From NCBI GenBank assembly GCA_052033955.1, contig JBPOJD010000003.1:23128-87127 (forward strand): a stretch of DNA of 64,000 nucleotides, read 5' to 3'. The notes beneath the pieces were generated by a model. It saw only the letters and a list, made by a program, of their open reading frames with translations, did not search any database and was not told where the DNA came from. This DNA comes from Candidatus Hydrogenedentota bacterium. Its GTDB lineage: Bacteria; Hydrogenedentota; Hydrogenedentia; Hydrogenedentales; SLHB01. Made by a program: the position numbers and the translations under genes. This document shows, one piece after another, positions 4,059 through 61,845 of the stretch. Position 1 is the stretch's first letter; every line of letters begins with the position of its first letter.

Positions 4059-4068
4059 CGACCCGGCA

Positions 4069-12902: not shown

Positions 12903-12950
12903 GGTCCGTTCTCAAGACCCTTCCTTGCGGCGCATCGTGCGGGGCCACGT

Positions 12951-24044: not shown

Positions 24045-24259
24045 GCGGCACCTCCTTCCGAGACAGATTTCGCCTCGGAAAGATAGGTGCGCCCCGCAAC
24101 CCATTCGTCGCGTTTACACGCTCAGTATAGCACGGAACAGCCGTTGGAGGAGCAATATTTCTGCCGGAACGGGACTCAAAGCAATGCCGGCGGCCCGCTT
24201 GTCGCGGACCGCCGGCACGTTCCGTCGCGTTGCGCCCCCTTGGACGCCAAGGTGTTGTC

Positions 24260-27200: not shown

Positions 27201-28693
27201 CCGTCGACGTTATCGGAGGCGGTAGCGCCCGCATCGCTGTAGGTCGTGCCGAAGGAGACCGTAACGGTCGCCGACCCGAGGAGCGTGATGACCGGCGGGG
27301 TGGTGTCCGCGGGGTTGGTGCCAACCGAGGTCGAGAACTCAAAAGCGCCGATATCCGGGGCCGATCCTTGCGGAACGGAGGTTCCATCGAGATCGCTCGT
27401 AATGCCGACATGGGTTCCCGCATCGATGAGCGGGCTGGTGGCCTGCAGGCGGAAATTACGGCCCGCGGCGTCCACAAACTTCGGATCGCTGATCCGGACG
27501 TCGCCGGACCGCAACGTGATCGAACCCGGGACAGCGTTATGGCTGGTGGTGGGCCCGGAATTGGTCCACATGTACCGGCCCGTGGCCGAAATGACGTTGT
27601 TCTTGACGGTTGCACTCGGGCAGTCGTGCAGTTCGACGTCGTAGTCGCGCACGCCGTAGAACGTGTTGTTCTCGATGCGGATGCCCGGAAGCGGGACGAT
27701 CTCGCGGGTCGAGTCGTTGATACCCCAGATGTTCAGCCCGCGGTACGCCGTGATGACGTTGTTGCGGAAGGTAAGGTCGCGCGTGGGGGTGCGCATCTGG
27801 GAGATCATCGCCGCCTGATAGGTGCCGTTGGTGGTCGGCAGGTTGATGGTATTGCCTTCGATGAGGATGTTGTAGGCGGGACCGAAGGTCTGGAAGGCAT
27901 CGATATGCGGACTCACGTTGCCGGTGTCCGCCATGGTGATGCTGTGAATGTGGTTGCCGCGGAAGATGTGGTCGCGGCCGTGGAACTTGATGCCATCGGC
28001 ATCCGGGCCACCGGCAGTGCTCAGTGTGGGATAGAGCGGGTGCTGGATGGTGTGGCTGATGTCGTTGTTCTCGATGAGCTGCGCGGCGCCATTGAGCGTG
28101 ATGCCGGCGTAGGCGCCCGCGTAGGCGATCCGGTTGCCGCGAATGATGTTGTAGCTGCTGTTGGTGGAATCCGCGGCGCCGGTCGTGAAGACCATGACGC
28201 CTTCCCGCAGCGTGTGGTGAATGTAGGTGTTCTGCACCGTGCAGTACTGCGTGTTGACGAGCGCGACCCCGCTGCCCTTGCCCCAGACGTCCCAGGAGGT
28301 CTGGCGAGGCATCGTGATCTCGAAGCCGTCGATGACGACGTAGCGCACGGTCGAGGAACCCTGGACCGTGAATCCCTGGGTGACCACGGCGCCGTCAGCC
28401 TTGAAGATGAGGGGGGCCGAGGCCGTGCCCGAACGCGAGATGGTCACGCGTTCATTGTAGGTGCCCGGCGCGACGAGACAGGTATTGCCCGCGGGCATGC
28501 TGTTGGCGGCCTTCTGGATCGTGCGCCACGCGGAGGCCGACGAGGTGCCGGTGTTGGCGTCGTTGCCACTTGAACCGTTTACATAGTAGGTGGCGGCGTG
28601 GGCCATAGCGCCCGTGGCCAGCAGGGCCAGCACCACCACGGTGGTGAAAGCGCGGAAGGGCGGAATGCTTCTTCCTGTGCGAATTGTTCCCAT
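24260..28693 (-). CDS. Giant secreted protein (1477 aa): two right-handed parallel beta-helix (pectin-lyase-fold) modules separated by six tandem DUF5011 Ig-like repeats, with a seventh at the C-terminus
   Basis: Signal peptide MGTIRTGRSIPPFRAFTTVVVLALLATGAMAHAATYY. Shine-Dalgarno AAAGGAG upstream of the ATG at 28693. The beta-helix module (ATYYVNGSSGNDANTG...[34 protein letters not shown]...[29 protein letters not shown]...) occurs twice. The approximately 80-aa repeats begin DTTPPVITLLGSATVTVSFGTTY.DAGATASDNVDG.ITSRIV.TSNVNT...Y.VTYNVKD.AGNAA.PV.RTV.V. Confidence 0.8.
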   Translation of the reverse strand: MGTIRTGRSIPPFRAFTTVVVLALLATGAMAHAATYYVNGSSGNDANTGTSSASAWRTIQKAANSMPAGNTCLVAPGTYNERVTISRSGTASAPLIFKADGAVVTQGFTVQGSSTVRYVVIDGFEITMPRQTSWDVWGKGSGVALVNTQYCTVQNTYIHHTLREGVMVFTTGAADSTNSSYNIIRGNRIAYAGAYAGITLNGAAQLIENNDISHTIQHPLYPTLSTAGGPDADGIKFHGRDHIFRGNHIHSITMADTGNVSPHIDAFQTFGPAYNILIEGNTINLPTTNGTYQAAMISQMRTPTRDLTFRNNVITAYRGLNIWGINDSTREIVPLPGIRIENNTFYGVRDYDVELHDCPSATVKNNVISATGRYMWTNSGPTTSHNAVPGSITLRSGDVRISDPKFVDAAGRNFRLQATSPLIDAGTHVGITSDLDGTSVPQGSAPDIGAFEFSTSVGTNPADTTPPVITLLGSATVTVSFGTTYSDAGATASDNVDGNITSRIVATSNVNTAKVGAYNVTYNVKDSAGNAAAPVVRTVNVVDTTPPVIALLGSATVTVSFGTTYTDAGATASDNVDGNITSRIVATSNVNTAKVGTYNVTYNVKDIAGNSAAPVARTVNVVDTTPPVIALLGSATVSVSLGATYTDAGATASDNVDGNITSRIVTTSNVNTNAAGTYTVTYNVKDNAGNAATPVVRTVVVQTAPDTTPPVITLLGSATVTVSFGATYTDAGATASDNVDGDITSRVVATSNVNTAKVGAYTVTYNVKDNAGNAATPVVRAVNVVDTTPPVITLLGSATVTVTVGTAYTDADATASDNVDGTITSRIVTTSNVNTNAVGTYTVTYNVKDNAGNAATPVVRTVVVQTAPDTTPPVITLLGSAQVTLTVGAVYTDAGATASDNVDGDITSRIVATSTVNTYVAGNYTVVYNVKDNAGNAATPVTRYVKVEQVIADANTYYVNAATGNDLNSGLSPTAAWKTIQKAANSMPAGNTCLVAPGTYAQRVTITRSGTASAPLVFKAAAPGVVTYGFTVRGSYVQIDGFEITIPRLASWDVWGTGSGVALINTKYCTVKNNYVHHTLREGVMVYSTLGEDAADSSYNVISANRIEYAGAYAGITLNGMAQLIEYNDISHTVQHPLYPTLSTAGGPDADGIKFGGRNHVIRGNHIHSITMDDYGNVGPHVDAFQTFGPAYDILIEGNTVNLPTGNAGYQAAMISQMRQPTRDITFRNNVITAYRGLNIWGINDSTREVVPLPGIRIENNTFHGVRDYDIELHDCPSATVRNNAISATGRYMWTNSSPAVSHNAVPGNLTLRPGDLRVSDHKFVDPAKGDFRLKPDSPLVDAGAYVGVEADFDGTPVPQGGAPDIGAFEFVHSSSSPAPQPEPEPAPVLDTTPPVITLIGSSNVRIPVGSASTDPGATAYDDVDGDITGRIVVSGTVNTSVAGTYTLTYNVSDTAGNAAKTVTRTVRVVATTRSFR
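25873..27328. repeat. Six tandem, near-identical coding repeats of about 240 bp (DUF5011 Ig-like units) inside the giant beta-helix gene
   Basis: The unit ggcggcgttcccggcgttgtccttgacgttgtaggtgac recurs at about 25876, 26131, 26371, 26611, 26851 and 27091, i.e. a period of 240 bp (255 bp once), with only a few substitutions per unit. Confidence 0.85.
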
Positions 28694-30625: not shown

Positions 30626-31496
30626 TGGCCTCTCCTTTCGCCTCGATGCGTTCCGGGGAACGGCGCATCAGCCGGCGCATCAGCTGTCCCTTGATGGCCG
30701 ACATGACAGGCATCCAGCAATACGCGCCCTTGACCTTGAGCCGGAACTCCCACAGGAGGTCCGAGGGGTCCACGCGGACGCGTCCAATGACGAACTCGTC
30801 CTGGGTCATGCGGGCCGGCCGGGCATTGCCGGTGAACACCCGCCGGTAACCGGCGTTCCGCACCATGTCGACCAGGGATGCATTGTGGCGGCCGTAGGGG
30901 AACACAAAGGTGTCGATCTCGCGCCCCAGCGCCTGCTCGAGGCATTCCCGGGAGGCCTCGAGCTCCAGACGGGCCTCCTGTTCGTTGAGCAGACACATGT
31001 TCCGGTGGGAGACGCCGTGGGACCCGATGGCGACCAGGCCGGCGGGCAGTTGCCGCAGGTCGCTCGCCGAGGCCACGGTCTCCGAGGTGTCGCGCGAGTG
31101 GAGCGCCTGGCGCCAGTTGGCCGGTCCGCCCATCTTGCCCGAGGGCACAAAGACCGAACAGGGAAGGCCTCGCGAGACAATTTCGGGTATGGCCCCGGTG
31201 ACGGCGCAGGTGAACGCGTCGTCGAAGGTGAGAGCGGCGTAGCGGCTTCCAGGCGCGAGTCCGTGCCGTTCACCGGCCGGGACCACGCGGGCCATGCGCT
31301 GCAACTCGTCCAACTGGCGGCGGAACGCGGGCATCTCATCGGCGCGGACCGAGTGATAACACACCACCATGCAGGTGGGAGGCGTTTCCTGTCCGGCGGC
31401 GCGCCGGATCCGCTGCCAGGCCTGATGCAGGATCCAGTACACCTGGCTGACGGCGAGTGTGAGGATGCGGTGGAGGATGGCGGTTACCGTGTGCAT
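30603..31496 (-). CDS. Polysaccharide deacetylase (NodB homology domain, CE4)
   Basis: ALTFDDAFTCAVTGAIPEIVSRGLPCSVFVPSG (the TFDD motif) ... IGSHGVSHRNM (His motif) ... FVFPYGRHNASLV. The ATG at 31496 is chosen; the upstream 150 codons of the ORF are Arg-rich, overlap the next gene and are rejected. Confidence 0.75.
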   Translation of the reverse strand: MHTVTAILHRILTLAVSQVYWILHQAWQRIRRAAGQETPPTCMVVCYHSVRADEMPAFRRQLDELQRMARVVPAGERHGLAPGSRYAALTFDDAFTCAVTGAIPEIVSRGLPCSVFVPSGKMGGPANWRQALHSRDTSETVASASDLRQLPAGLVAIGSHGVSHRNMCLLNEQEARLELEASRECLEQALGREIDTFVFPYGRHNASLVDMVRNAGYRRVFTGNARPARMTQDEFVIGRVRVDPSDLLWEFRLKVKGAYCWMPVMSAIKGQLMRRLMRRSPERIEAKGEASVHFTRP

Positions 31497-31954
31497 TGCG
31501 CGGCCTCTGCGCCGTGCCGGCGCGTGTCGTCGGGAAAGGCGGTGACGGTGTGCGTAAGGGTGCCGCGCAGCGCAGCGCCACGCGCCTGAAACGCGGCCTC
31601 GATGGCGCGCACCACGTGACGCGCATGCTCCGTGGGGGTGCCGGTCAGGATGACCCCGATGGCGGATCCGCTGTTCTGCCATCCGGCCACGTCGCTCAGG
31701 CGCACGCGGGTGCGCACCGCGCCGGCGAGCAGGCCGAGGAGCCGGTCCGGATCCGCGCCGTCCCAGGCATCGACGGTAAACGACACGAGCACACACGGCG
31801 TGCCGGTGCGGTCCGCGAGGGCACGTTGGCGCAGCAACGCGTCGCGAAAGGCACGTTCGTCGAGCAGCGCAGGCGTGTCCAAGGGCGGCGGGGATTCCGC
31901 GCGGGTCCCACTGGGCCACCTTTCCGGTGTCTTCTGCTGTCGCCACCTTGTCAT
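31484..31954 (-). CDS. Small protein with a degenerate GGDEF-like (diguanylate-cyclase-fold) domain
   Basis: CVLVSFTVDAWDGADPDRLLGLLAGAVRTRVRLSDVAGWQNSGSAIGVILTGTPTEHARHVVRAIEAAF aligns to the GGDEF-domain core, with GWQNS in place of GGDEF. Start at ATG 31954; upstream ORF part rejected. Confidence 0.45.
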   Translation of the reverse strand: MTRWRQQKTPERWPSGTRAESPPPLDTPALLDERAFRDALLRQRALADRTGTPCVLVSFTVDAWDGADPDRLLGLLAGAVRTRVRLSDVAGWQNSGSAIGVILTGTPTEHARHVVRAIEAAFQARGAALRGTLTHTVTAFPDDTRRHGAEAAQCTR

Positions 31955-31994
31955 GTCGTGTCGCCTGGCCGCCGCTGGCGCCGGTTCTGCCCTG

Positions 31995-32390
31995 TCAGTG
32001 ATTGACCACTGACGGCCGGTCCTGGTTCTGATTGCCGCCTTCGTCGAGGCGTCTGCGTGCAACATCCAGCAGCGTGGAGATGTCCCGGCCGTCGCTCGGG
32101 TACGAGGCCGCGCCGAAACGCACCGACACCGCCCCGCCATAGGCGTGCTGGAGCCGGTGTATTGCCGCGCGCGCCCCGTCGCTGTCGGTCTCGCCCATGA
32201 GCACCGTTACGTGGGGCTTCGACTCGATCACCGCGTCGCTCACGCGCAGGAACCCCGAGAAGAGCTGGCGGAACTTGTCGCGGGGTTTCCCGACACTGCA
32301 CACGAGCACCGTGAAAAACCGCTGATAGCGTTCGGAGTTGCGCAGCTCGTGTTCGGCGAGCAACTCGAAAAGCTCAGGCTTGTTCTCCAC
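31995..32390 (-). CDS. Second small protein with a degenerate GGDEF-like domain
   Basis: FTVLVCSVGKPRDKFRQLFSGFLRVSDAVIESKPHVTVLMGETDSDGARAAIHRLQ...PSDGRDISTLLDVARRRLDEG follows the GGDEF-domain pattern but lacks the GGDEF/GGEEF residues. The GTG at 32390 avoids overlap with the upstream GT4; the alternative ATG at 32519 would overlap it by about 57 nt. Confidence 0.4.
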   Translation of the reverse strand: MENKPELFELLAEHELRNSERYQRFFTVLVCSVGKPRDKFRQLFSGFLRVSDAVIESKPHVTVLMGETDSDGARAAIHRLQHAYGGAVSVRFGAASYPSDGRDISTLLDVARRRLDEGGNQNQDRPSVVNH

Positions 32391-32461
32391 TCGTGAGACC
32401 CTTGTCGTTCCGGGTGCGCGGCGCCGGTGCGCGGGGTGTCCCGGGCGGCGCCGCGGCGCCG

Positions 32462-33637
32462 CTATGCCGCCAGAAGCCGTTCTACCAGATTCGTGTACAC
32501 CCTCTTGTGTTCGTTCCATCTGTATTTCGCTCCAAATCCCATCCAGGCCGCCTGGCCGAGTTCCAAACGCTTGTCCGGGTGAGCGTAGAGATCCTCCACG
32601 GCCCCGGCGAACGACGTGGGGTCGTCTGCGTCGAAGAACTGAACCATGGCGGCATCGAAATAGCGCATGATGGTCTGTGTCCTGGGTACCACACAGGGAA
32701 TCCCCATCTGCACGTACTCGAGCAGCTTGGTGGGAAGCATCAATTCGGTCGCGCTCGAGATGCGCATCGGGATGACGCCGACATCGACGTCCGCCAGGCG
32801 ATACGGAATCTCTTCGACGGGCACGAACCCGTCGCTGAACGCGACCCGGGACGCAACGCCGAGGTCCGCGGCCCGCCGCGCCAGCTCCTCGCGGGCTTCC
32901 CCGTCCCCGATGATGCGCAGCTCGATGTCCGGAATGCGTTCGCACAGCACCGGCATGGCCTCGACGGCGATGTCCAGGCCAAGACGGTGCGCGAGCGTGC
33001 CGTGATAGGCCAGGACAAAGGGCGCGCCCGGACGCCGGGTTCGCGGTTCGCGCGGCGGCGCGAAGATCCGCTCGTCCGGAAGATTGAACAATACCGAGAT
33101 CTTGTTGCGCGGGATGCCGCGTTGGGACAGCACGTCCTTGAGGCGCTCCTCGACGGTGAGCACCTGTGTGGCAAAGCGCCCGGCCATCCACTCTTGGGAC
33201 GCAAGCAGCCGGATCACCCAGTGGCGCGCGCCGACATGAAACTTCTCCATGTAAAGCTCGGGCATCGGGTCATGGACGTCGTGGATAACGGGAACACCCA
33301 GGGCGCGGGGAAGCCACGCGGCGAGGACGAGGAAATCGGGCATGTTGCTGACGTGAATCAGGCGGTACCGGAGCGGGTGGGCCGTCATGTGCGCGCAGAT
33401 CTGAAGGAAGAAGAGGAGATAGTCCGCCAGATAGGCCGCGACCGAATCCGGTTTGTGCGACCGCGCCCGGGTCCGGCGCACGTCCACCCCCATGATCGTC
33501 TCGCGCCGGGGTTGGCCCGGCTGGCCGCGGGCGATGAAGACCACGCGGTGGCCTTCCTCGACCAGCGCCTCGGCCTCGCGCCGGACGCGGGGATCGCGGC
33601 TGTAGTTCGTGTATGCGGCCATGAGCACGGTTGCCAT
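32462..33637 (-). CDS. Glycosyltransferase family 4
   Basis: MATVLMAAYTNYSRDPRVRREAEALVEEGHRVVFI ... C-terminal GT4 signature MLPTKLLEYVQMGIPCVVPRTQTI (EX7E). ATG at 33637. Confidence 0.8.
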   Translation of the reverse strand: MATVLMAAYTNYSRDPRVRREAEALVEEGHRVVFIARGQPGQPRRETIMGVDVRRTRARSHKPDSVAAYLADYLLFFLQICAHMTAHPLRYRLIHVSNMPDFLVLAAWLPRALGVPVIHDVHDPMPELYMEKFHVGARHWVIRLLASQEWMAGRFATQVLTVEERLKDVLSQRGIPRNKISVLFNLPDERIFAPPREPRTRRPGAPFVLAYHGTLAHRLGLDIAVEAMPVLCERIPDIELRIIGDGEAREELARRAADLGVASRVAFSDGFVPVEEIPYRLADVDVGVIPMRISSATELMLPTKLLEYVQMGIPCVVPRTQTIMRYFDAAMVQFFDADDPTSFAGAVEDLYAHPDKRLELGQAAWMGFGAKYRWNEHKRVYTNLVERLLAA

Positions 33638-33641
33638 TGCC

Positions 33642-35012
33642 TTACCCGTCCAGGTCGCGCGGCGCGACCGAGGCGTGCGCGTCGCATCCCCCCGCCATCG
33701 CGGCGGACCAGTCCTTGGGGATGCCGAGCGTCCTGCGGCCGGTGCCCAAGTACAAGAGGCCCGCGCGTGCCGCAGCGAGGGGGTCCCAGAAGTCCCTTCC
33801 ATCAACGACTACGCTGATCCCACCGGCCGCCCACGCAGCGAAGTCCGGCGAGGCAAATTCCTCGTGCGCGGTGTTCAGAAACACGACGTCCGCGCGGTCC
33901 CGGTCCACGTCCGCCGGACGGAACCCCGCGCAGAGAATCTCGTGACTGCTGTAATGCGGATCCTGGAGCGTGACGATGGCGCCGTGCCGGATCAGTTCAT
34001 CGCGAAGCGCGTAGGCGCTGCTGAAGATGTCGACCTTGACGCCGGGGCGGAAGGCGAGTCCGAGGATATGCGCCCGTTTGTTCGCGAGCGGCTGCCACGC
34101 CTGGGCCACACGCGCCACGTGCCGCGCAGGCTGGGCGTCGTTGACCGCCCGCGCGGTCTCCGCGAGCCGCTGTCCGACCCCGAGGCGCCGCGCGGCCCGG
34201 GTCAGAAAGTAGGGGTACACCGGAGTGCAGTGACCGCCGACGCCGATTCCCGGCGCGAGCAGATGGGCCTCGCCGCTGGTGTTGGCGGCGCGCCGGACTA
34301 CCTCGAAATCCACGCCAACGGCCTCGGCGAACTCGGCCAGTTCGTTGGCGAGCGCGATGCTGACGTCGCGGTAGAGCATGTCGGCAAGCTTCGCCATCTC
34401 AGCGGCCTCGAGGGTCCGCACGTCGTGCACGGGCGCGCCCAGATACAGACTGTAGAAGGCGACGGCCTTGGCGCAGGAGGCCTGATCATAGCCCCCGACG
34501 ACCTTGGGCGTCTTCCGCAGGCGTTCCAGCACGAGGTTGGCCTTGACCCGTTCGGGGCTGAATGCCACGTGAAAATCGCGTCCGGCCTTGAGGCCACTGT
34601 GGTCTTCAAGCACCGGGACCAGTTCGTGACGGGTGCCGCCGACCGATACCGTCGTTTCGAAAATGACGAGGGCGCCCGGCTGGAGCCCCTCGCCGACCCG
34701 TGCCGCCGCGTCCTTGAGAATGGCGTAGTCGATGTCGCGCTCATTCGTGAGGTGGGCCGGGACGATGACAATGATGACGTCCGCATCCCGCGCGGCCTGC
34801 GTCGTGTCGAGGGTCGCCCGGAGCCGGCCTTCCTGGTGGACTTCATCGAGGAGGGCGGCGAGGCCGGGCTCCTCGTACGGGCACAAGCCCTCGTTGATCT
34901 GGCGGACGAGGGCGGGGTTGATGTCGCAGACCGTGGCTGCGGCGCCGTTTCCAGCGAGCACACACGCCAGCGGCAACCCCATGCGGCCGGCGCCCACGAC
35001 CATCGCGTTCAT
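33642..35012 (-). CDS. Nucleotide-sugar 6-dehydrogenase (WbpA/WecC-like UDP-N-acetylhexosamine dehydrogenase)
   Basis: MNAMVVGAGRMGLPLACVLA (Rossmann GxGxxG) ... GGHCTPVYPYFL (catalytic Cys region of the UDPG/MGDP dehydrogenase family). Its ATG overlaps the upstream aminotransferase stop (ATGA). Confidence 0.75.
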   Translation of the reverse strand: MNAMVVGAGRMGLPLACVLAGNGAAATVCDINPALVRQINEGLCPYEEPGLAALLDEVHQEGRLRATLDTTQAARDADVIIVIVPAHLTNERDIDYAILKDAAARVGEGLQPGALVIFETTVSVGGTRHELVPVLEDHSGLKAGRDFHVAFSPERVKANLVLERLRKTPKVVGGYDQASCAKAVAFYSLYLGAPVHDVRTLEAAEMAKLADMLYRDVSIALANELAEFAEAVGVDFEVVRRAANTSGEAHLLAPGIGVGGHCTPVYPYFLTRAARRLGVGQRLAETARAVNDAQPARHVARVAQAWQPLANKRAHILGLAFRPGVKVDIFSSAYALRDELIRHGAIVTLQDPHYSSHEILCAGFRPADVDRDRADVVFLNTAHEEFASPDFAAWAAGGISVVVDGRDFWDPLAAARAGLLYLGTGRRTLGIPKDWSAAMAGGCDAHASVAPRDLDG

Positions 35013-36139
35013 GCGCAGCGCTCCTTCAGGGTTGATACCGCCGCCCGAAGCCCGTCGCAGACGAAGCCGATCTGTTCATCGGTGATCTCGGCGAACATCG
35101 GCAGCGACAGCAGGTGCAGGGCCTGCTGTTCGGCCACGGGGAAATCGCCTTCGCCATGGCCGCGCGCGGCGTAGGCCTTCTGCAGGTGCAGCGGGATGGG
35201 GTAATGCAGGCCGGTGGCGATGCCCTGCCCGGCGAGCGCGGCCTGGACCTCGTCCCGGTTGGGCACCTGCACCACGAAGAGATGCCAGACGGGCCGGCAG
35301 TGCGCCGGCACCGTCGGCAAGACCACCCCATCCACATGCGCCAGCAGCTCCATGTAGCGCCGGGCGGCCCTGCGCCGGGCCTCCGTCCAATCCGGCAGGC
35401 AGCGGAGCTTCACGCGCAGTGCCGCCGCCTGAAGGGCGTCACAGCGGCCATTGTGTCCTTCGATGTCGTGATAGTACTTCTTGACCTGGCCGTGGTCGCG
35501 CAGCATGCGCACCCGGTCGGCGAGGTCGGTGTCGTTGGTGACGACGGCCCCGGCCTCCCCGCAGGCGCCGAGGTTCTTGCCCGGATAGAACGAGAATCCG
35601 GCCGCGACGCCCATCGTTCCGGTGCGACGGCCTTTGTACTCGGCGAGATGGGCCTGTGCGGCATCTTCGACGACCCACAGCCCATGCTCGGCGGCTACGG
35701 CGCCGATGGCGTCCATGTCGGCGGGCTGTCCATAGAGGTGGACCGGAACGATGCCCTTGGTGCGGGGCGTGATGACTTGTTCGATCTGCTGCACGTCCAG
35801 GTTGTACGTGTCCGGGCGGACATCGATGAAGACGGGTGTTCCGCCGGCCAGGCTCACGGCCTCGCTCGTGGCGATGAAGGTGTTGGCCGGTACGATGACC
35901 TCGTCGCCGGGGCGGAGTCCCAGGGCCTTGAAGATGAAGAGGAGCGCGTCCGTCCCATTGCTGACCGTCACGCAGTGACGCGCGTCGCATGCCGCGGCGA
36001 ACTCTTCTTCGAAGGCAGCAACGTGCGCCCCGCCGATGAACCCCGCCGTGTCAAGAATGTCGCTCCACAGGGTCAAGATCTCTTGCTTGACGAGCCGGTG
36101 CTGCGCTCTCAGATCCAGGAAGGGGACGTTCGTCTGCAT
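35009..36139 (-). CDS. DegT/DnrJ/EryC1/StrS-family PLP-dependent sugar aminotransferase (WbpE/PglE-like)
   Basis: MQTNVPFLDLRAQHRLVKQEILTLWSDILDTAGFIGGAHVAAFEEEFAAACDARHCVTVSNGTDAL ... SFYPGKNLGACGEAGAVVTND is the classic DegT family signature. Confidence 0.85.
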   Translation of the reverse strand: MQTNVPFLDLRAQHRLVKQEILTLWSDILDTAGFIGGAHVAAFEEEFAAACDARHCVTVSNGTDALLFIFKALGLRPGDEVIVPANTFIATSEAVSLAGGTPVFIDVRPDTYNLDVQQIEQVITPRTKGIVPVHLYGQPADMDAIGAVAAEHGLWVVEDAAQAHLAEYKGRRTGTMGVAAGFSFYPGKNLGACGEAGAVVTNDTDLADRVRMLRDHGQVKKYYHDIEGHNGRCDALQAAALRVKLRCLPDWTEARRRAARRYMELLAHVDGVVLPTVPAHCRPVWHLFVVQVPNRDEVQAALAGQGIATGLHYPIPLHLQKAYAARGHGEGDFPVAEQQALHLLSLPMFAEITDEQIGFVCDGLRAAVSTLKERCA

Positions 36140-36620
36140 GGGATGCCGCCTTTCTCATGAAGCGGGCGGGATTGCCCGCCCAGATCTCGCCATCAGGGAT
36201 GGACTTGGTCACGACACTGCCCGCGCCGACGACGGCGCCCGCACCGATGCGTACGCCACAGAGAACCGTGACGCTCGAACCGAGTGAGGCCCCGTCGCCG
36301 ACATGCGTTGGGATAACAGCCCAATCCGCCTCGGTCTGAAGGGAACCGCCGGGGTTGGTCGCCCGGGGGTACCGGTCATTGATGAAGGTGACGTTGTGGC
36401 CGACAAACACCCCGTCGCCAATGGTCACGCCCTCGCAGATAAAGGTGTGACTGGATACCTTGCAGTCCTTGCCGATAACGGCGTTTTTCTGGATCTCGAC
36501 GAAGCAGCCGATCCGCGAGCGGTCGCCGATCCGGCAGCCGTAGAGGTTGACGAATCCAAAGATCCGCACGTCTTCTCCCATCACCACGTCCGGCGCGATG
36601 CGCGAATAGGATTCCATCAT
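36051..36620 (-). CDS. Hexapeptide-repeat (left-handed beta-helix) sugar N-acetyltransferase (WbpD/PglD-like)
   Basis: MMESYSRIAPDVVMGEDVRIFGFVNLYGCRIGDRSRIGCFVEIQKNAVIGKDCKVSSHTFICEGVTIGDGVFVGHNVTFIND is made of hexapeptide repeats. Shine-Dalgarno AAAGGA 6 nt upstream of the ATG at 36620. The C-terminal 30 aa overlap the aminotransferase start by 88 nt. Confidence 0.7.
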   Translation of the reverse strand: MMESYSRIAPDVVMGEDVRIFGFVNLYGCRIGDRSRIGCFVEIQKNAVIGKDCKVSSHTFICEGVTIGDGVFVGHNVTFINDRYPRATNPGGSLQTEADWAVIPTHVGDGASLGSSVTVLCGVRIGAGAVVGAGSVVTKSIPDGEIWAGNPARFMRKAASHADERPLPGSESAAPARQARDLDPVERHS

Positions 36621-36858
36621 GCGTTGTCCTTTCGAATGGATGGGGCTCCGAACCGCCGGCGCCCATGCCGCGATGCGAGCAACGCATGTGCCAACGCGTC
36701 GCCGCCCCGCAAGACTGCCGCGGATATGCGGAAATCTGCGGGCGCGCCGGTGATCAACGGGAACACCAGCGCTGTGATGTGGCGATTGCATGCGCGATCT
36801 GGCGCGCAACCCTTGGCTGGATTCGGCATGTCCGCAGTGGGCCGCGGCATGGGTGAGG

Positions 36859-37752
36859 TCACTGGACGCGCCATGGCCGCCACCCCCCCGACACCGAGCC
36901 CCAGAGCTTGCGGTGCTGTTCCTCGCGGATAAACCGCGCCAGATCCGGCGGCACGCGGTAGTCGCCATGGCCCGCGACGCCCCAGAGATACCCGAGCGTC
37001 CGCACGAGCGCGCCGACAACGTAGGGGCGCTCGATGCTGCGGTACGCCGCGCGCGCCAGCACGAACCACGGGCTCCATCCGAAGACGCCCTGCGTGACAC
37101 CTTGGCGGAAACGCGCGCGCAGCAGGCTGCCCGCGGCCTGGCCGGTTACGCCGTGATGCAGCACGGGCAATTCGGGAAACGAGCGTGACTCCCATCCCTT
37201 CCACCGGGCGACATGGAGTGCCAGCGCATCTTCGGAGCCCAGCCGCAACGGCACGTAGCCGCCGATGTCCTCGTAGCACGCCCGTCGGAACATCTGGACC
37301 GCGCCCCCGACGCTGTCGAGGCTCGCATGCTTGGGATGGGCCATGCCGTCGTAGAAGTCGAAGGTGACGCCGCCGCCGATGCCGAGGCGGGGGTTGGCGT
37401 CGAAGCGCGCAAGCAGCCGCTCGAAGTAGTCGGGGCCAAACGTAATGTCCGCGTCGAGATTGCCCACGTACGCGTAGTCCTCGCCGGCCAACAGTTCCAG
37501 GCCGGCGTTGATGGCATGCACCTTCGAACCGAAGTCCCGGGTCCCTTGACCATCGCGGCGGAGGTAGCGTACGAACGGATAGTGTTCCGCGCAGGCCTTT
37601 GCGATTTCGTCGGTGCCGTCCGTGGACCCGTCGCTGACGATTACCCATCCAAGCGGGCGGCGGGTCTGCGAGACGACCGCGTCGATCGTGAGTTCGAGGG
37701 TTGCTGCGGCGTCGCGCGCGGGGGTGATCAATACGTAGTCCTGCCCGTTCAT
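36859..37752 (-). CDS. Glycosyltransferase family 2
   Basis: MNGQDYVLITPARDAAATLELTIDAVVSQTRRPLGWVIVSDGSTDGTDEIA is a GT-A fold N-terminus with a DxD-type region. The ATG at 37752 overlaps the upstream gene's stop. The long Arg-rich N-terminal ORF extension is rejected. Confidence 0.75.
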   Translation of the reverse strand: MNGQDYVLITPARDAAATLELTIDAVVSQTRRPLGWVIVSDGSTDGTDEIAKACAEHYPFVRYLRRDGQGTRDFGSKVHAINAGLELLAGEDYAYVGNLDADITFGPDYFERLLARFDANPRLGIGGGVTFDFYDGMAHPKHASLDSVGGAVQMFRRACYEDIGGYVPLRLGSEDALALHVARWKGWESRSFPELPVLHHGVTGQAAGSLLRARFRQGVTQGVFGWSPWFVLARAAYRSIERPYVVGALVRTLGYLWGVAGHGDYRVPPDLARFIREEQHRKLWGSVSGGWRPWRVQ

Positions 37753-39155
37753 GCCAGTGCCTCCCCTTCTGAGACGCCACGTCCGAGGTGAACTGGCGTC
37801 TGCCGGGGCACGGGCGCCTGTTCTGGTTGCGCCAAGACCGCCGGAAGCGCGCAACAGAGCGCCCAGAAGCACCAGAAGGCGACGGAGGTGAAGCCGCGGC
37901 TGCTGGTGATCGCCGTCTCGACGAAGTTCGACAGCAGGCACTGCACCATCACAATGACCACGACCGCCTTCAGGTCGCCGGGCGGAAGGTGCAGAGCTCT
38001 TATCAAGGGCAGCACGAGGATGATCATCCAGACCAGTCCACCCACGAGCCCCATGCCGATCACGGCATTCAGGTAGCCATTGTGGAGCGATGTGCGCGCG
38101 CTGCCCCAGGTCGACTCCATCTGCTTGGTCGAAAAACGTGGGTCGGTCCATACCTCGCCGCCTACCTCGTAGCCGTAGCCGCGAAGCGGGCGCTGCCCGA
38201 TGAGGGCCAGGCTGGGCCCCCAGAACTGTTCGCGCCCGGTGAGATCGGTGATCGTGCGTGTGGCGGCCTGATCGCGCTCGAGACTGGGCACCACCGCCGC
38301 GGACAGAAGCACCAGCGGTACCCCGACGACAACGGCCGTCAGGCTGAAACGAAGGCCCTGTCCCAAGAGGACGTGCCAGAGCAGGACCGCGGCCACGGCA
38401 CACCCGATGGATGACCGGGAGCCTGACAGGAGGAGCAGCCCCCATGCGAGCCCGAACATGGCGCCGAAGAAGGTCTTGCCGAAACCGGCCGAGCGCCGGT
38501 ACCGCCACATGAGCAGCGATATGGCGATCATGCACAGTCCGCCAAGCATGTTGGGGTGGCCCGTGATGCCCTGATACCGGTTCGGAGACTGCCACCACCA
38601 CACCTGGGACGGCGCGAACACCAGTGCCGCCGCGTTGATCACCAGCCCGGCGCATGACAGCACGGTAAGCAGCGCTAAGATGCGCTCGACACCGGACCGC
38701 TCCTGGGCCATCGCATACAAGCCAAGGAGGAAGGCCAGGAAGACGATGGCCTCGGACGCCCGAATGAAAGTAAAAGCGGGATTGATGCTGTACCACGTGG
38801 TGACCAACGCCGCACCAAAGAATGCGCCGGCCATCGTGAAGACCGGCGGCACGGGGAGTTCCTGCCGCGAGCGGACGCGCAGGCAGGCGGCGGCTCCTGC
38901 GAGCCCGGCGACAAGAATGATCGCCATGCGGACGTAGGTGCTGATCTCAGTGGATTCGGCGAACTCGAGAAACTCGTTGAAGCGCAGTTCCTCATTTGAT
39001 GAGGTCAACCAGTGGGCCCACGGGGATATCCACACGAGCCCGGCCATGATCTCGAAGCGGCGCAGCGAGTGCGCGAAGACGACCGCGACAGTCAGCGCGC
39101 CGCACAGTGCCAAAAGGGCGCTCACCACGAGGCCATGTTGCACCAGGAACGTCAT
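37749..39155 (-). CDS. O-antigen ligase/polymerase-like membrane protein (Wzy_C domain)
   Basis: Multi-transmembrane protein whose periplasmic loop carries GSRSSIGCAVAAVLLWHVLL ... HNGYLNAVIGMGLVG, typical of O-antigen ligase/Wzy. ATG at 39155 (MTFLVQHGLVVSALLAL). Confidence 0.7.
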   Translation of the reverse strand: MTFLVQHGLVVSALLALCGALTVAVVFAHSLRRFEIMAGLVWISPWAHWLTSSNEELRFNEFLEFAESTEISTYVRMAIILVAGLAGAAACLRVRSRQELPVPPVFTMAGAFFGAALVTTWYSINPAFTFIRASEAIVFLAFLLGLYAMAQERSGVERILALLTVLSCAGLVINAAALVFAPSQVWWWQSPNRYQGITGHPNMLGGLCMIAISLLMWRYRRSAGFGKTFFGAMFGLAWGLLLLSGSRSSIGCAVAAVLLWHVLLGQGLRFSLTAVVVGVPLVLLSAAVVPSLERDQAATRTITDLTGREQFWGPSLALIGQRPLRGYGYEVGGEVWTDPRFSTKQMESTWGSARTSLHNGYLNAVIGMGLVGGLVWMIILVLPLIRALHLPPGDLKAVVVIVMVQCLLSNFVETAITSSRGFTSVAFWCFWALCCALPAVLAQPEQAPVPRQTPVHLGRGVSEGEALA

Positions 39156-39174
39156 GGCGTGTCCCCGTGTACTG

Positions 39175-40629
39175 TCAGCGATCGGCCCATGCCAACGCTC
39201 CCCGGAGCGCGGTGCGCTCCTGTGCGGTCCAAAAAGGTCCCAGCCAGACCACGGCCGTGCAGGCCGCGAAGAAGGCGCCGATGCCGCCGAGGAACAGGGG
39301 GACGGTGGCGTGGCGCAGCGCGAAGGCCGCCATGAGCAGGGCGCCAAACACGCAGCACAGCAGAAAGAGTCGTCCCCACTCGACATGCTCGACAAGGTTC
39401 AGCCGGCGCATGCCCAGCGCCAGCTCAACGGAGTCAGCGAATAAGGCCGCCGATGTCGAGGCGATGACCGCGCCGTGCCATCCGAAGCGGGGAATCAGCA
39501 CGAGGCTCAGGACCACACAGGCCGCACCGCACGAGGAGTTGAGCGCGGCGAGCACGCTGGTGCGACGCGCGGCGCCCAGCAGCGTCTCGCCGAAGTAATG
39601 AAGGCCCATGAGCGCCTGTCCCGGCAGGAGCCACAGCATCACGATGAAGGCATCGGAGTAGGTTGGGGGCGCGACGAGCGGCAGCAGCAGCCGCGTCCCG
39701 ACTATGATGGCGAAGGAGAAGGTCGTGGTGACCAGCACGAGATAGGTCAGCAGGCGTGCCACATTGCGTTCAATCCCCGGGTTGCCCAGATTACCGTACA
39801 CGTAGGGCTGGAACGCCAGCTGGAACGGCAGAAAGACGCCTATCGCGGTCAGGGTGGCGAACTTGTAGCCGAGCGAGAACACGGCGACCGTGGTCAGGCC
39901 TGCGGAATAGCTGAGGACGTACAGACTTACGCCGTAAATCGTCGATTGCCCCGCGGACGAAATAACGAGCGGGCCGCCAAAACGCAGGAAGACGGGCAGC
40001 AGCGTTCGGGACACGCGGACGCCACGCCGGGGAAAGATGTCCAGCGCGACGATGATGTAGACCATGCAGTACGTCGCGATGTACGCGTACAGCGCGCCGC
40101 GAACGCCGAGGCGGAGCACATACAGCGCGATGATGGTGTTCACGAGGAGGATCAGGCCGCTGCCCAGACCGACGCCGATGAAGCGGCGGGAGAGGTTATG
40201 GGCGCGGTAATACGACATGATCTGGAGGGTGAGCGTCTGGGCGAGCGCCGCGACACAGGTCAGTCCGATCAGGGCGAGCACCGTGTCGGTGTGCAGGATG
40301 ACCCGGAAGAGGTTGGGCAACAGCAGGACGGCGACGCCGGTCACGACGGCGCCGCCCATCAGCACAATGACCGTGCAGGTGCCCAGCAGGTGGCTGATGC
40401 GGCCGGCTTCCTCGCATTCCTTGGTGAATCGCAGCGCGGTCTCGCCCATTCCGACGTTCATCAGAAACAGCATGAAGTGGATGGTGATCTGGAGCGTCGC
40501 CCACATGCCGAAGTCGTCCATGGACAGGCAGTAGGTGTAGACCGGCGTCAACAGCAGCGAGGCGGTCCGCATTCCGATGTTGCCGAGCCCGTACAGCGCG
40601 GCATCTTTGAAGAAACCCGACAGTTTCAT
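39175..40629 (-). CDS. Oligosaccharide flippase (Wzx / polysaccharide biosynthesis protein)
   Basis: MKLSGFFKDAALYGLGNIGMRTASLLLTPVYTYCLSMDDFGMW is a typical PST-family start. About 12-14 transmembrane helices. Its ATG at 40629 overlaps the stop of the upstream oxidoreductase. Confidence 0.75.
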   Translation of the reverse strand: MKLSGFFKDAALYGLGNIGMRTASLLLTPVYTYCLSMDDFGMWATLQITIHFMLFLMNVGMGETALRFTKECEEAGRISHLLGTCTVIVLMGGAVVTGVAVLLLPNLFRVILHTDTVLALIGLTCVAALAQTLTLQIMSYYRAHNLSRRFIGVGLGSGLILLVNTIIALYVLRLGVRGALYAYIATYCMVYIIVALDIFPRRGVRVSRTLLPVFLRFGGPLVISSAGQSTIYGVSLYVLSYSAGLTTVAVFSLGYKFATLTAIGVFLPFQLAFQPYVYGNLGNPGIERNVARLLTYLVLVTTTFSFAIIVGTRLLLPLVAPPTYSDAFIVMLWLLPGQALMGLHYFGETLLGAARRTSVLAALNSSCGAACVVLSLVLIPRFGWHGAVIASTSAALFADSVELALGMRRLNLVEHVEWGRLFLLCCVFGALLMAAFALRHATVPLFLGGIGAFFAACTAVVWLGPFWTAQERTALRGALAWADR

Positions 40630-41807
40630 GCGATATGCCGTCCGGTGTCGCTCGCAACCGGCGCGGCGGCCGGCGCTCCCTTGGACTGAAGGGCCGCATG
40701 GGCGACGTGCGCGATGGAGGAACCATTTACCGGTTCGGGCCTCATGGGGACCGCTGCCGCCGGTTTCATCGCCCAGACGGCGCGGCGCCCATTGGTCGCC
40801 ACCTTGCCGCCGCCGTTCCGGAGGGAGGCGGTCGAGGCCTCGAGCACCCGCACGACGGCCAGCCCGTTGGCGCCGTCGCTCAGGGGGGTCTTGCCTTCGC
40901 GCAGGCACTCGACGAAGTGCTGGCACTCGATCTTGAGCGGTTCCTGCTCGCGGATGTAGGGACAATGCATGTCGCCGTAGTGATACGAGTACTGAAAGTC
41001 GGCGTAGGTATCGTAGTGCGGCGGCACCTCGACGTGTTTGTCGTAGATCTTGATCTTCTCGACGGGTGCGATGTCGTCGTAGACAAGCATCTTACGGGTG
41101 CCGACAAAGGTCATCTCGCGGGTCTTGTTCGGGTCGAGCCAACTGCTCTGGACCATGGCGAGGACGCCCGAGGGGAAGCTCAGCGTCATGTTGGTGACAT
41201 CCTCGATGCCGCGCGCGATACCGGCCTTGCCCTGGCAGGCGACGAACTCGGGGTCTTCGCCGACGACATGGATGATGATGGAGATGTCGTGGGGGGCAAG
41301 ATCCCAGGTGACGTTGATGTCCTTCTGGAAGAGCCCGAGGTTCAACCGGCGCGAGGTGACGTAGAGCAGCGTGCCCAGTTCGCCGGAGTCCACGATTTCC
41401 TTGATGGCGCGGACCGGACTCGAGTACAGGAAGGTGTGGCCGACCATCAGGGTCAGGCCCTTCTTCTGGGCCAGCCCGATCAGGGTGCGGCATTCGGCCG
41501 AGGACGCGGCCATCGGTTTCTCGATGAAGGTGTGTTTCCCGGCGCTCAGTGCCTTCTTTGCCAAGGCGAAGTGGGCCTGCACGGGGGTGACGATGGCCAC
41601 GGCATGGATGTCCGGGTTGCCCGTGACGTCATTGAAGTCCGAGGTGGTGGTGACCTGGGGCCAGAGGCCCTTCATGTGGGCAAGCCGGCTGGGGTTTGCG
41701 TCGCACAGCATCGTCACTTGGCAGTCCGGTGCGGAATTGAAGTTCCGCACCAGGTTTGGGCCCCAGTACCCGCACCCCACGACGGCGACATTGCATGTGG
41801 CGTTCAT
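40626..41807 (-). CDS. Gfo/Idh/MocA-family NAD-dependent oxidoreductase (WbpB-like UDP-sugar 3-dehydrogenase)
   Basis: MNATCNVAVVGCGYWGPNLVRNFNSAPDCQVTMLCDANPSRLAHMKG ... EKPMAASSAECRTLIGLAQKKGLTLMVGHTF is the Gfo/Idh/MocA N-terminal Rossmann fold plus its C-terminal domain. Start at ATG 41807. Confidence 0.8.
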   Translation of the reverse strand: MNATCNVAVVGCGYWGPNLVRNFNSAPDCQVTMLCDANPSRLAHMKGLWPQVTTTSDFNDVTGNPDIHAVAIVTPVQAHFALAKKALSAGKHTFIEKPMAASSAECRTLIGLAQKKGLTLMVGHTFLYSSPVRAIKEIVDSGELGTLLYVTSRRLNLGLFQKDINVTWDLAPHDISIIIHVVGEDPEFVACQGKAGIARGIEDVTNMTLSFPSGVLAMVQSSWLDPNKTREMTFVGTRKMLVYDDIAPVEKIKIYDKHVEVPPHYDTYADFQYSYHYGDMHCPYIREQEPLKIECQHFVECLREGKTPLSDGANGLAVVRVLEASTASLRNGGGKVATNGRRAVWAMKPAAAVPMRPEPVNGSSIAHVAHAALQSKGAPAAAPVASDTGRHIA

Positions 41808-41812
41808 TACAG

Positions 41813-42892
41813 TCACTCCTTTCCGAAGAGAAGATCGTTGAATTGGCTGCCGACCGTCGGCAGCGTCTTGAGCAGTATCCAAAGGTCCGACCACAGCGAA
41901 AACGTGCGGGCGTACCGGATATCCAGCCGGACCATTTCGTGAAAGGTGAGCCGGTTCTTGCCGCTGACCTGCCACAGGCCTGTCATGCCCGGGACGCAGT
42001 CAAAACGCGCGGCGTGCCACGCGGCGTAGGCCTCGACCTCGTAGGGGATGGCGGGCCGCGGGCCGATCAGGCTCATTTCCCCGCAGAGGACATTGAAGAG
42101 CTGCGGGAGTTCATCCAGACAGAGCGAACGCAGCAGGCGCGCGAAGGGGATAAGCTGCGGATCGTACTCGAGCTTGACCATCGGGCGTTGGACGTCGCCG
42201 CGGCACACGCCATTGCCCTGGATGAGTTCGGTGACGTGACGGCGGTGGATTGCCGTGTCGGCGTGCACCCGCATGGTGCGGAATTTCCACATGCGGAACG
42301 GGAATCCGCGGAACCCGACGCGCTCCTGCGAGAATAATACCGGCCCCGGCGACGCGATCTTGACGTAGAGAGCCAGTGCCGCAAAAAGGGGCGCCAGCAG
42401 AATCAGTCCGATCAGCGCGCCGGTGACGTCCATCGCCCGTTTCCAGCGCGGCAGTGGGCGCCCGAAGAGCGCTTCGGCCGGCATGCACGGCGGGGAGTTC
42501 ACTGCGGCGTCCGGCGCCGTCTCGCGGCCCGTTGTCGTGGGATACACGAACATCGAGCACAGGATCCGCGGGACGGGCGTTCCGGCAGGCAGCCGTGTGG
42601 CGGCCGCTTCCGCGAAGGCCGCCTCGATCGATGCCATCACGCTTTGCGCGCCCGCCTGCCGGGCATTGGGGAGCAGGAGGCCGATGGCGTGGTGGCGCGG
42701 GTCCTCCCAGCCGGCGATGTCGCTCTTGCGGTGGCGTGCGGCAACGGTCTCGGCGAGAAGGGTGAGCCACGTCCGTTTGCCGGGACGGGATCCCTCGATG
42801 CGGAACCGCAGGAACGCGAACGGCCGTTCCGATCGGTCGGCGTAGGCGCGATGCTGCACCAGTGCCCGGGCCAGGGCCTCGCTGGACAACAT
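41813..42892 (-). CDS. Polyprenyl-phosphate sugar transferase (bacterial sugar transferase, WbaP/EpsB-like) with an N-terminal degenerate GGDEF-like domain
   Basis: C-terminal LIGLILLAPLFAALALYVKIASPGPVLFSQERVGFRGFPFRMWKFRTM...DELPQLFNVLCGEMSLIGPRP is the Bac_transf domain. The N-terminal region ERPFAFLRFRIEG...KSDIAGWEDPRHHAIGLLLPNARQAGAQSVMASIEAAF resembles GGDEF, with GWEDP in place of GGDEF. Start at ATG 42892 (MLSSEALARAL...). Confidence 0.75.
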   Translation of the reverse strand: MLSSEALARALVQHRAYADRSERPFAFLRFRIEGSRPGKRTWLTLLAETVAARHRKSDIAGWEDPRHHAIGLLLPNARQAGAQSVMASIEAAFAEAAATRLPAGTPVPRILCSMFVYPTTTGRETAPDAAVNSPPCMPAEALFGRPLPRWKRAMDVTGALIGLILLAPLFAALALYVKIASPGPVLFSQERVGFRGFPFRMWKFRTMRVHADTAIHRRHVTELIQGNGVCRGDVQRPMVKLEYDPQLIPFARLLRSLCLDELPQLFNVLCGEMSLIGPRPAIPYEVEAYAAWHAARFDCVPGMTGLWQVSGKNRLTFHEMVRLDIRYARTFSLWSDLWILLKTLPTVGSQFNDLLFGKE

Positions 42893-42958
42893 CCCGGCGC
42901 TGGGGGGCGGGTCAGACGCGCGCTGTGTTCCCCCTGTGCGTGCGTGCGTACCGTTGCC

Positions 42959-43648
42959 GTGTCCTTGCATGGCGTGTTCCTGGCGCTACAGGCGCTGGTA
43001 GAGGAACTCGGGGATGTACTGCCGTTGATTGCTCAGGATGGCCCCGAGAATCCGGCCGTTGTTCGCGACGATCTGTTCCGCCTGGTGTTTGACGGCCTGC
43101 CACCGGGCCCTCTCGGCTTCGACGACCAGCACGACGCCGTCCGCCGCGCCGCACAGAAGCTGAGTGCGCGCGGGCAGCCCGCCGAGGGCCGCATCCACCA
43201 GCACCCAGTCGAACGTTTCGCGCCACTGGGCGCAGAGCCGGTCCACATCGGCGGGGTCGCCCGCCGCGGCGGTCGCCGCATCCACGGCATCCGGGCGTGA
43301 GCCGTTGTTTCCGTTAACAGGCGCTTCCGGCCATGCCGGGTCGTTCTTGTGAAGCCCGTTGCCCATGACGCGCCCACCCACGACGAGCACTCGCTTCTTG
43401 AGGCAGCACTCCGCCGTCCTGGCGACCAAGGTCAGCACAGGCGTCCCGTTCGGCTGCGCGGGCACGGAGACGAAGGCCAGCACGGCGCCGCGTGAACGGT
43501 CGAGCTGTGCATCGATGCGCTTGCATGCCCCAAGGAGGCTCTCGTCAATCTCCGCCAAGGGAAGCGGGGGGACGGCGGCAACCGGGGCGGTCTCGACGGG
43601 TTGTGCGCGGTCTTTACTGGCCTGTTGCAGGGCTTCGTAGATCTTCGT
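42959..43648 (-). CDS. BY-kinase-like (ParA/MinD-fold) protein with a degenerate Walker A motif
   Basis: MTKIYEALQQASKDR ... VLAFVSVPAQPNGTPVLTLVARTAE ... DWVLVDAALGGLPARTQLLCGAADGVVLVVEAERARWQAVKHQAEQIVANNGRILGAILSNQ has the architecture of an EPS tyrosine autokinase C-terminal domain. The Walker A GK(S/T) is replaced by PNGT. Confidence 0.5.
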
Positions 43649-49300: not shown

Positions 49301-49582
49301 CTCGACCTCCCCTTCTTTCTCACATGCAGGGTCTTTTTCACTTTTCGCTCCTATATCAAAATACCCGCAACCATCGCCATCGCCTATCGGGACGCGGCGC
49401 ATTATCGGGTCAGGGGAACCCGGATAACGCGAAAGCGGCCGATCAGGTACACTGTGGTGGGGCTCAGACCGCTCGAGCCGTCCAACCACCTTCACGCGCC
49501 GCTCTGAGCCCCCCGAGATGCGGCGCGTTTCCGGCTACAGGCCGGGTGGGAGACCTCCACCGTGTTTCCCGGAGTGAGGCCA

Positions 49583-51250: not shown

Positions 51251-51333
51251 ATCAGGGGACGGCTTGGTTTTTGTGCTTGTCTTTGTGGCGGCGGGTCCCC
51301 GATACTCTGTGGAACTACCGGAAAGGGAATGCC

Positions 51334-61620: not shown

Positions 61621-61845
61621 TGGGTGGTTTCCTTTCCCCCGTAGAGACCTGCCGTTCCCCGCCCCCATGGCGCTGACGGCAAAGCCGGCACATGAACCTG
61701 CGCCGATTGGACCAGATGGTATCACGCGGGGTTTCAGCCAAGAAAGTTTCGCCGCCGCGGGATGGCCAACGAGCAATAGTCTCGCCGCGGCGGGTTGTTC
61801 ACTACAAGGCCTGACGCCGTCTACCCGTCAGGCTGGGAGGGACAT

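Follow-up and report, generated by a model that had tools for sequence, protein, structure and literature searches.

Degenerate GGDEF-like domains with invariant I-site motifs, one fused to the priming transferase of a Wzx/Wzy-type exopolysaccharide locus, are candidate c-di-GMP receptors

Introduction

Control of polysaccharide production by cyclic di-GMP (c-di-GMP) is well understood in synthase-dependent systems: cellulose, alginate, Pel, PNAG, and Listeria Pss. Wzx/Wzy-dependent pathways are far commoner than synthase-dependent ones, and the only controls on them that we know of are phosphorylation and, very recently, a response-regulator partner. Here we describe three degenerate GGDEF-like domains in an exopolysaccharide (EPS) cluster of a Candidatus Hydrogenedentota bacterium, carried on a 64-kb stretch of DNA (assembly GCA_052033955.1, contig JBPOJD010000003.1, positions 23,128 to 87,127) that we call the window. 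Two of them, A and B, are stand-alone proteins, and the third, C, is the N-terminal domain of the priming phosphoglycosyl transferase (PGT). A paper of November 2025 called the post-translational regulation of Wzx/Wzy pathways “incompletely understood” and c-di-GMP control typical of synthase pathways (PMC12802240).

Several described systems come close to these domains. PelD, the c-di-GMP receptor of the Pseudomonas aeruginosa Pel system, is a membrane protein that has transmembrane (TM) helices as well as a GAF domain and works in a synthase-dependent pathway (PelF), whereas the domains described here are found in a free protein of 130 to 156 amino acids (aa) or in a fusion to a monotopic PGT, belong to a Wzx/Wzy pathway, and have a deleted substrate loop. 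BcsE, a GIL (degenerate GGDEF) protein of cellulose secretion, differs in being multidomain, in its RxGD motif, and in being synthase dependent. PssE of Listeria monocytogenes and YdaK of Bacillus subtilis are, like A and B, degenerate GGDEF proteins encoded in EPS operons, and they are I-site receptors that activate polysaccharide synthesis post-translationally (PMC4125290, PMC5422440). Both, however, are membrane anchored and work with processive synthase-type glycosyltransferases (PssC and YdaM), and neither is fused to a PGT or known to act on one. We found no such pairing of a membrane-anchored receptor with a synthase here: A and B are short and apparently soluble, the fused partner is a PGT, and the locus is of the Wzx/Wzy type. 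By analogy, the three domains would work most like PelD, PssE, and YdaK, from which they differ in architecture, trimming, the lack of a membrane anchor, and pathway type.

For A and B, the best functional analogy is the EpsW-EpsZ pair of Myxococcus xanthus, in which a small stand-alone signaling protein encoded with the Wzx/Wzy EPS genes contacts the initiating PGT directly and thereby activates it (PMC12802240). EpsW is a phosphorylated receiver domain and EpsZ a large monotopic PGT (monoPGT), whereas here the fold is GGDEF-like, the PGT has a small core, and one copy of the domain is fused in cis. Bifunctional (fused) monotopic PGTs and WbaP also carry an extra cytoplasmic domain N-terminal of the PGT core, and for such accessory domains a regulatory role in nucleotide sensing has been proposed (PMC10312794). 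The accessory domain of WbaP is Rossmann-like (PF13727) and follows a four-helix TM bundle, whereas the domain described here is GGDEF-like and lacks the bundle. Our literature search returned no paper on a fusion of GGDEF with a phosphoglycosyl, priming, or sugar transferase, a 2021 PNAS survey of PGT fusions and a 2021 Biochem Soc Trans review lying outside its coverage; a 2024 preprint on monoPGT annotation does not mention GGDEF.

Results

A, B, and C are conserved coding regions with a GGDEF fold

The first-pass annotation of the window had noted three GGDEF-like segments, and all three were found at the positions given, on the minus strand (Table 1). The window has a GC content of 65%, and all genes of the region that holds A, B, and C run on the minus strand. 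Third-position GC (GC3) peaked at 0.8 to 0.95 specifically in the reading frames of A and B and also marked the frame of the 385-aa transferase. The product of A is the same 156-aa protein already called in a public protein collection, the transferase is identical to an entry there (P0001), and B has a 131-aa relative with 93% identity (P0123). A word-indexed search with B returned a single near-identical protein; the same kind of search with the N terminus of C alone gave no match, and the full-length transferase was used as the query instead. Since only 40 nucleotides (nt) separate B from A, and the 3' end of A shares 13 nt with the polysaccharide deacetylase gene that follows it, the genes are packed as an operon. 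Conservation in an orthologous locus, on which the first-pass annotation had made its proposal depend, was found for both small open reading frames (ORFs): the fully syntenic metagenomic locus L001 keeps them at the equivalent position, with a 141-aa orthologue of B (55% identity over 122 aa, E=5e-48) and a 166-aa orthologue of A (44% identity over the 41 aa available).

Searches with single sequences were suggestive only. Against Pfam, A and B matched GGDEF_2 at E=0.03 and GGDEF at E=0.08 to 0.16, and C gave no GGDEF match. Their scores of 12 to 15 bits compare with Pfam gathering thresholds of 23.8/24.5, so PF00990 and PF17853 would miss these domains. Current annotation calls the proteins “sugar transferase” or “hypothetical protein” only. 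Automatic names at JGI call a few relatives “GGDEF domain-containing,” and one relative has a precomputed PF00990 match; the resemblance has thus already been picked up by pipelines. A and C are paralogues (BLASTP, 36% identity, E=1e-12), and A matches the CAdom HMM at E=2e-32; B has no BLAST similarity to A or C.

Family profiles and structure models were decisive. With the whole transferase as the query, we obtained 7,580 relatives, and a homologous N-terminal extension of 150 to 225 aa was present in 106 of the 119 best. Alignment A1, comprising 44 of these extension domains together with C and A (46 sequences, mean column identity of 21%), gave a profile that matched diguanylate cyclase domains in the PDB (3IGN, E=1.3e-13; 5EUH, 2.8e-11; WspR, 4e-9). 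An exhaustive HMMER search with B yielded 246 representative relatives, nearly all of them stand-alone (median length, 134 aa), and the profile of this B-type family, A2, matched GGDEF structures 6D9M (E=1.3e-10), 4URG, and 3IGN (both about 1e-7). The C/A-type and B-type families share only about 16% identity with each other, and the comparison of profiles A1 and A2 gave a 97% probability (E=5.4e-11). The AlphaFold model of C had a pLDDT of 83 overall and above 90 across residues 27 to 145. For B, the AlphaFold2 (AF2) model had a pLDDT of 86.7, and its top Foldseek matches were all GGDEF domains (TM, 0.7 to 0.8). Profile and structure searches had been named beforehand as the way to refute the GGDEF assignment; solved GGDEF domains matched better than other nucleotidyl-cyclase or receiver folds. 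A, B, and C belong to the GGDEF superfamily by both fold and profile.

Some B-type domains lie within longer proteins (P0129, P0184, P0191, and P0220, 257 to 301 aa), so the mini-domain is not exclusively stand-alone. Two separate stretches of P0129 aligned with B, suggesting that the domain has been duplicated in tandem, and a weak B-type match was seen within a 704-aa ORF of locus L036 (positions 2121..4232).

Catalytic determinants are lost, and I-site residues are retained

The GG[DE]EF motif was present in none of 108 C/A-type and none of 150 B-type sequences (0/258). In HMMER alignments with 3IGN, 5EUH, WspR, and 6D9M, both families showed a gap of about 9 residues at the FKxxNDxxGHxxGD substrate- and base-binding loop. 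The metal-binding Asp of beta-1 is not conserved (C reads F-R-I-E there), and C/A-type domains stop after beta-4 (…vytYPs), without the final helix-strand of the catalytic domain that the B type retains. Judged from these sequences, the A, B, and C domains cannot be cyclases: the active site, the metal-binding Asp, and the base-binding loop are gone. The first-pass annotation had read GWQNS and GWEDP in the place of GG(D/E)EF. The loss of the active site that it drew from this stands, but the register was off by a few residues, as the conserved G-W aligns with the (G/A)-R before Y-GGDEF. The residues that truly correspond to GG(D/E)EF are approximately R92-H-H-A-I96 for C, S-G-S-A-I for A, and K58-P59-(gap)-H60-V61 for B.

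An RxxD I-site motif had been described as not obvious, and this did not hold: the motif is present in A, B, and C (Table 1) and invariant in the C/A-type and B-type families alike. Alignment A1 has no invariant columns other than R81 and D84. The pattern R..D..G was found in all 108 C/A-type domains, extending to R..D..GW, with W88, in 101 of them. Among B-type sequences, R49 was present in 147/148, D52 in 148/148, and R79 in 150/150, with R21, P98, and D100 also essentially invariant. The register rests on HMMER profile alignments to PDB sequences, an approximate PleD sequence having served as a ruler only. In these alignments RxxD lines up with RQSD in 3IGN and with REVD in 6D9M, five positions ahead of GGEEF/GGDEF, where the I-site lies. 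B R79 aligns with the “aeR” arginine of 6D9M, a position that we take to be that of PleD R390 and PelD R402. B-type domains would then have a complete primary I-site, made up of RxxD and the second Arg. RxxD is dispensable for the GGDEF fold, and many active cyclases lack it. Every characterized RxxD I-site that we know of binds c-di-GMP.

The C domain is fused to a small-core priming transferase

The transferase matched Bac_transf (PF02397) with 195 bits (cutoff, 27) over residues 177 to 373 and TIGR03025 with 245 bits; matches to TIGR03022 and TIGR03023 were limited to its C-terminal core. The core contains a hydrophobic helix with an S-P-G-P break and the sequence L-D286-E287-L-P, in which we take D286-E287 to be the equivalent of the Asp-Glu dyad of PglC. 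The N-terminal ~175 aa are GGDEF-like and the PGT core is C-terminal, as the first-pass annotation had proposed in describing a dead GGDEF domain fused to the initiating transferase. A large monoPGT of the WbaP/EpsZ type was considered and rejected, given the GGDEF-like nature of the N-terminal 175 aa and the absence of a Pfam match to the TM bundle or PF13727. The protein is a small-core monoPGT with an N-terminal fusion, neither WbaP-type large nor plain PglC-type (classes as in PMC10312794).

In a betaproteobacterial metagenome-assembled genome (MAG) (L023, 12946..13987, minus strand), two overlapping ORFs, one GGDEF-like and one catalytic, take the place of the fused transferase. A frameshift, an assembly error, or a natural fission may lie behind the split.

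The fused transferase belongs to a conserved Wzx/Wzy module

In transcription order, the cluster begins with a sigma-54 activator, Wza, a Wzz/GNVR copolymerase, an AAA_22 ATPase (best match, a PEP-CTERM-associated ATPase model), a degenerate tyrosine-kinase-like protein, and the priming transferase. These are followed by a UDP-GlcNAc 3-dehydrogenase-like GFO/MocA protein, a Wzx flippase, a Wzy polymerase (Wzy_C), a GT2, a hexapeptide acetyltransferase, a DegT aminotransferase, a nucleotide-sugar dehydrogenase, a GT4, B, and A; a polysaccharide deacetylase and a FemAB-like protein close the cluster. The locus is a Wzx/Wzy-dependent EPS pathway, and its product probably contains a di-N-acetylated amino-uronic sugar.

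We rejected an XrtA/PEP-CTERM EPS locus, whose models were the best or near-best matches but scored below cutoff (bits/cutoff: ATPase, 242/324.5; chain length, 133/279; export, 90/180; regulator, 277/503; FemAB, 26/260), no search having been aimed at the exosortase.

Gene order in L001 is that of the window from the sigma-54 activator through GT4, followed by the B and A orthologues. Nine further loci with a fused transferase were sampled (L029/L030, L031, L032, L033, L034, L035, L037, L038, and L039), including those of Desulfonema ishimotonii (L032) and a Sumerlaeota genome (L035). In all nine, the fused gene lies within a Wza-Wzz(-kinase)-[ATPase]-[kinase-like]-PGT module. A GFO/MocA gene directly follows the fused transferase in 11/11 related loci (L001, L029 to L035, and L037 to L039), usually overlapping it; so tight a pairing may be a clue to the sugar substrate (2,3-diacetamido sugar pathway) or to the existence of a physical complex. 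Upstream of the fused PGT, an equivalent of the kinase-like gene was found in L001, L029, L031, L032, L035, and L039, and equivalents of the sigma-54 activator were found in L001 and L035.

A B-type gene was detected in L029/L030, L031, and L035 by an HMM scan of all ORFs (E=1e-36 to 1e-48). It lies just upstream of Wza in each, in L035 within the interval between the sigma-54 activator and Wza. With the window and L001 counted, 5 of the 10 loci having adequate flanks carry such a gene. Fused transferases also occur in Thioalkalicoccus limnaeus and in several Pseudomonadota MAGs. A genome scan anchored on GT4 gave orthologues of about 60% identity, mostly in other locus types (best, T. limnaeus, 63%), and a metagenome scan with B gave one marginal locus.

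Other features of the window

Directly upstream of the transferase, the 227-aa kinase-like protein is a possible coregulator and, by analogy with CapB-CapM phosphorylation, may be a pseudokinase partner of the PGT; by eye, its Walker A loop seems to be absent. Over its residues 75 to 519, the sigma-54 activator gives a full-length alignment to the model of the PEP-CTERM-box response regulator (277 bits). Of other transcriptional regulators, FleQ and VpsR sense c-di-GMP.

Four large secreted-type proteins flank the EPS cluster, with Ig-like/HYR repeats, beta-helix, TSP3 repeats, DUF1565, and polysaccharide-deacetylase/DUF2334 domains among them; they could be components of the matrix or enzymes that modify the EPS. 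In L001, the equivalent place is taken by a Pel9A-like beta-helix protein. A second polysaccharide gene set makes the 64-kb window largely one surface-glycan island. Two ORFs had no Pfam match (5915..7237, 440 aa; 51169..53916, 915 aa), and a multihaem cytochrome at the window edge hints at a metal-respiring or sulfur/iron-cycling host.

Table 1. Positions in the window of the GGDEF-like segments, the transferase, and other features
Feature	Coordinates	Strand	Remarks
Segment A, stand-alone 156-aa degenerate GGDEF-like protein, C/A type	31484..31954	minus	ATG start
A RxxD, R85-L-S-D88	31691..31702	minus	
Segment B, stand-alone 131-aa degenerate GGDEF-like protein, B-type family	31995..32390	minus	GTG start
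B I-site residues, R49-V-S-D52 and R79	32154..32246	minus	A2 family, 6D9M register
Priming PGT, 385 aa: N-terminal degenerate GGDEF-like domain, linker, small monotopic PGT core	41813..42970	minus	
PGT catalytic core	41816..42445	minus	re-entrant helix (…LILLAPLFAALALYVKIASPGPV…) and D286-E287
Segment C, degenerate GGDEF-like domain of the 385-aa transferase, residues ~27-150	42521..42892	minus	
C I-site motif, R81-K-S-D84, then G87-W88	42719..42730	minus	alignment A1, 3IGN register
GFO/IDH/MocA oxidoreductase, UDP-GlcNAc 3-dehydrogenase-like	40626..41975	minus	next gene after transferase
Degenerate tyrosine-kinase/ParA-like protein, 227 aa	42986..43669	minus	TIGR01007, E=3.7e-7, C-terminal part only
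Sigma-54 enhancer-binding protein, receiver-like N terminus	47909..49495	minus	cluster head
Large secreted-type proteins (n=4) flanking the EPS cluster	19911..24104 (-), 24260..28693 (-), 49562..51250 (+), 58957..61776 (-)		
Second polysaccharide gene set: UDP-glucose dehydrogenase, heparinase II/III-like protein, GT4, second flippase	4491..14423		
Multihaem cytochrome, c554/MtrC-like domains	62783..63466	plus	window edge

Discussion

We favor, with about even confidence, the view that A, B, and the N-terminal domain of the transferase are I-site-only receptors for c-di-GMP in the cytoplasm, through which the first committed step of EPS synthesis would be controlled. We do so because the nucleotide-binding triad has been kept by selection while the catalytic apparatus decayed, because the domain is fused to the cytoplasmic N terminus of the enzyme that commits undecaprenyl phosphate, and because a related free domain travels along, at different positions in different lineages. 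The domains themselves are GGDEF domains that have been trimmed and are catalytically dead, with the I-site residues retained. The domain fused to the monotopic PGT would sense the nucleotide in cis and alter the activity or dimerization of the transferase. The free B-type protein, with its complete primary I-site, would be a partner or adaptor of the transferase, and A would be a free, lineage-specific copy of the domain that the transferase carries. In PleD and WspR, GGDEF domains are cross-linked by intercalated c-di-GMP during product inhibition; more speculatively, B might be cross-linked to the transferase domain in the same manner. c-di-GMP as the ligand, the direction of regulation, and contacts of B or A with C are what we infer, whereas the GGDEF homology and fold, the loss of catalysis, the invariance of the I-site residues, the fusion, and the synteny are what the analysis showed. 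We regard as possible, albeit doubtful, a broader version in which a large class of small monoPGTs, spread widely across lineages, has a built-in I-site-only mini-GGDEF sensor and is often paired with a free B-type protein, and an intercalated c-di-GMP dimer bridges the transferase domain to that protein, or two transferase domains to each other, switching the enzyme on or off.

Several observations weigh against the receptor proposal. In C/A-type domains, RxxD is accompanied by a conserved Trp and the position of the second I-site Arg is mostly Asp or Ser, so that the predicted site amounts to half of a canonical primary I-site; the invariance of RxxD could serve another ligand or a protein contact. 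The 64-kb window contains no canonical GGDEF, EAL, or HD-GYP gene. No B-type gene was found within 10 kb of the fused transferase in L032, L033, L034, L038, or L039, and the window and L001 were the only loci in which a free A-type copy was seen.

Two alternatives would remove the basis of any such proposal, and we give virtually no credence to either. Short ORFs are plentiful in 65% GC DNA, and the single-sequence Pfam scores of A and B are under threshold, so that one might take these two for chance ORFs or decaying pseudogene fragments. This idea is already refuted by the frame-specific GC3, the orthologues in L001, the 246 B-type relatives with their invariant residues, the confident AF2 models, and the tight operon packing with its 13-nt overlap. 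The presence of a GGDEF fold would likewise be compatible with diguanylate cyclases that still work with an unusual active site, against which stand the 0/258 count for GG[DE]EF, the unconserved beta-1 Asp, the deleted guanine-base loop, and, in the C/A type, the missing C-terminal helix-strand.

Of greater weight, if still unlikely in our estimation, is that the domains are ligand-free modules for protein-protein interaction or dimerization. The dead GGDEF fold would then hold the small PGT as an active dimer or dock it to the Wzz, kinase-like, and ATPase machinery, with A and B serving as competing or bridging subunits and RxxD forming part of an interface or having a structural role. Large PGTs need dimerization, and EpsW has been proposed to promote the EpsZ dimer (PMC12802240); the missing second Arg of the C/A type and the lack of c-di-GMP enzyme genes nearby fit this explanation, and the near-invariant W88 (101/108) beside RxxD could be an interface residue. 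A pure interface, however, is not expected to coincide exactly with the nucleotide-binding triad, which the B type keeps at ~100%, and RxxD, though dispensable for the fold, is the single invariant element in two families at ~16% identity. We consider it quite improbable that the I-site pocket binds another nucleotide (cGAMP, c-di-AMP, or (p)ppGpp) or a metabolite (UMP or a UDP-sugar), in a feedback control resembling the nucleotide-sensing DUF of WbaP. The WbaP accessory domain has been proposed to be a UMP sensor (PMC10312794), the structural matches include 9G85, in which PleD is bound to c-di-GMP and ppGpp together, and the C/A-type site is noncanonical, with Trp replacing Arg and no second Arg; the canonical triad of the B type speaks against this, as does the binding of c-di-GMP by every characterized RxxD I-site that we know of.

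The receptor proposal bears on a logical control point, since it is the initiating transferase that takes from the limited pool of undecaprenyl phosphate. Because the domain families fall below Pfam and NCBIfam thresholds, they are invisible to censuses of c-di-GMP effectors. The hypothesis is easily testable, as A and B are small and apparently soluble and mutation of RxxD offers an obvious control, and it should be of interest to both the c-di-GMP and the polysaccharide fields. A sensor fused to the priming enzyme, conserved across phyla in a recognizable gene module, would show coupling of a second messenger to the initiating step and, if the proposal is true, would be the first direct cyclic-dinucleotide gate on the initiation of Wzx/Wzy-dependent polysaccharide synthesis.

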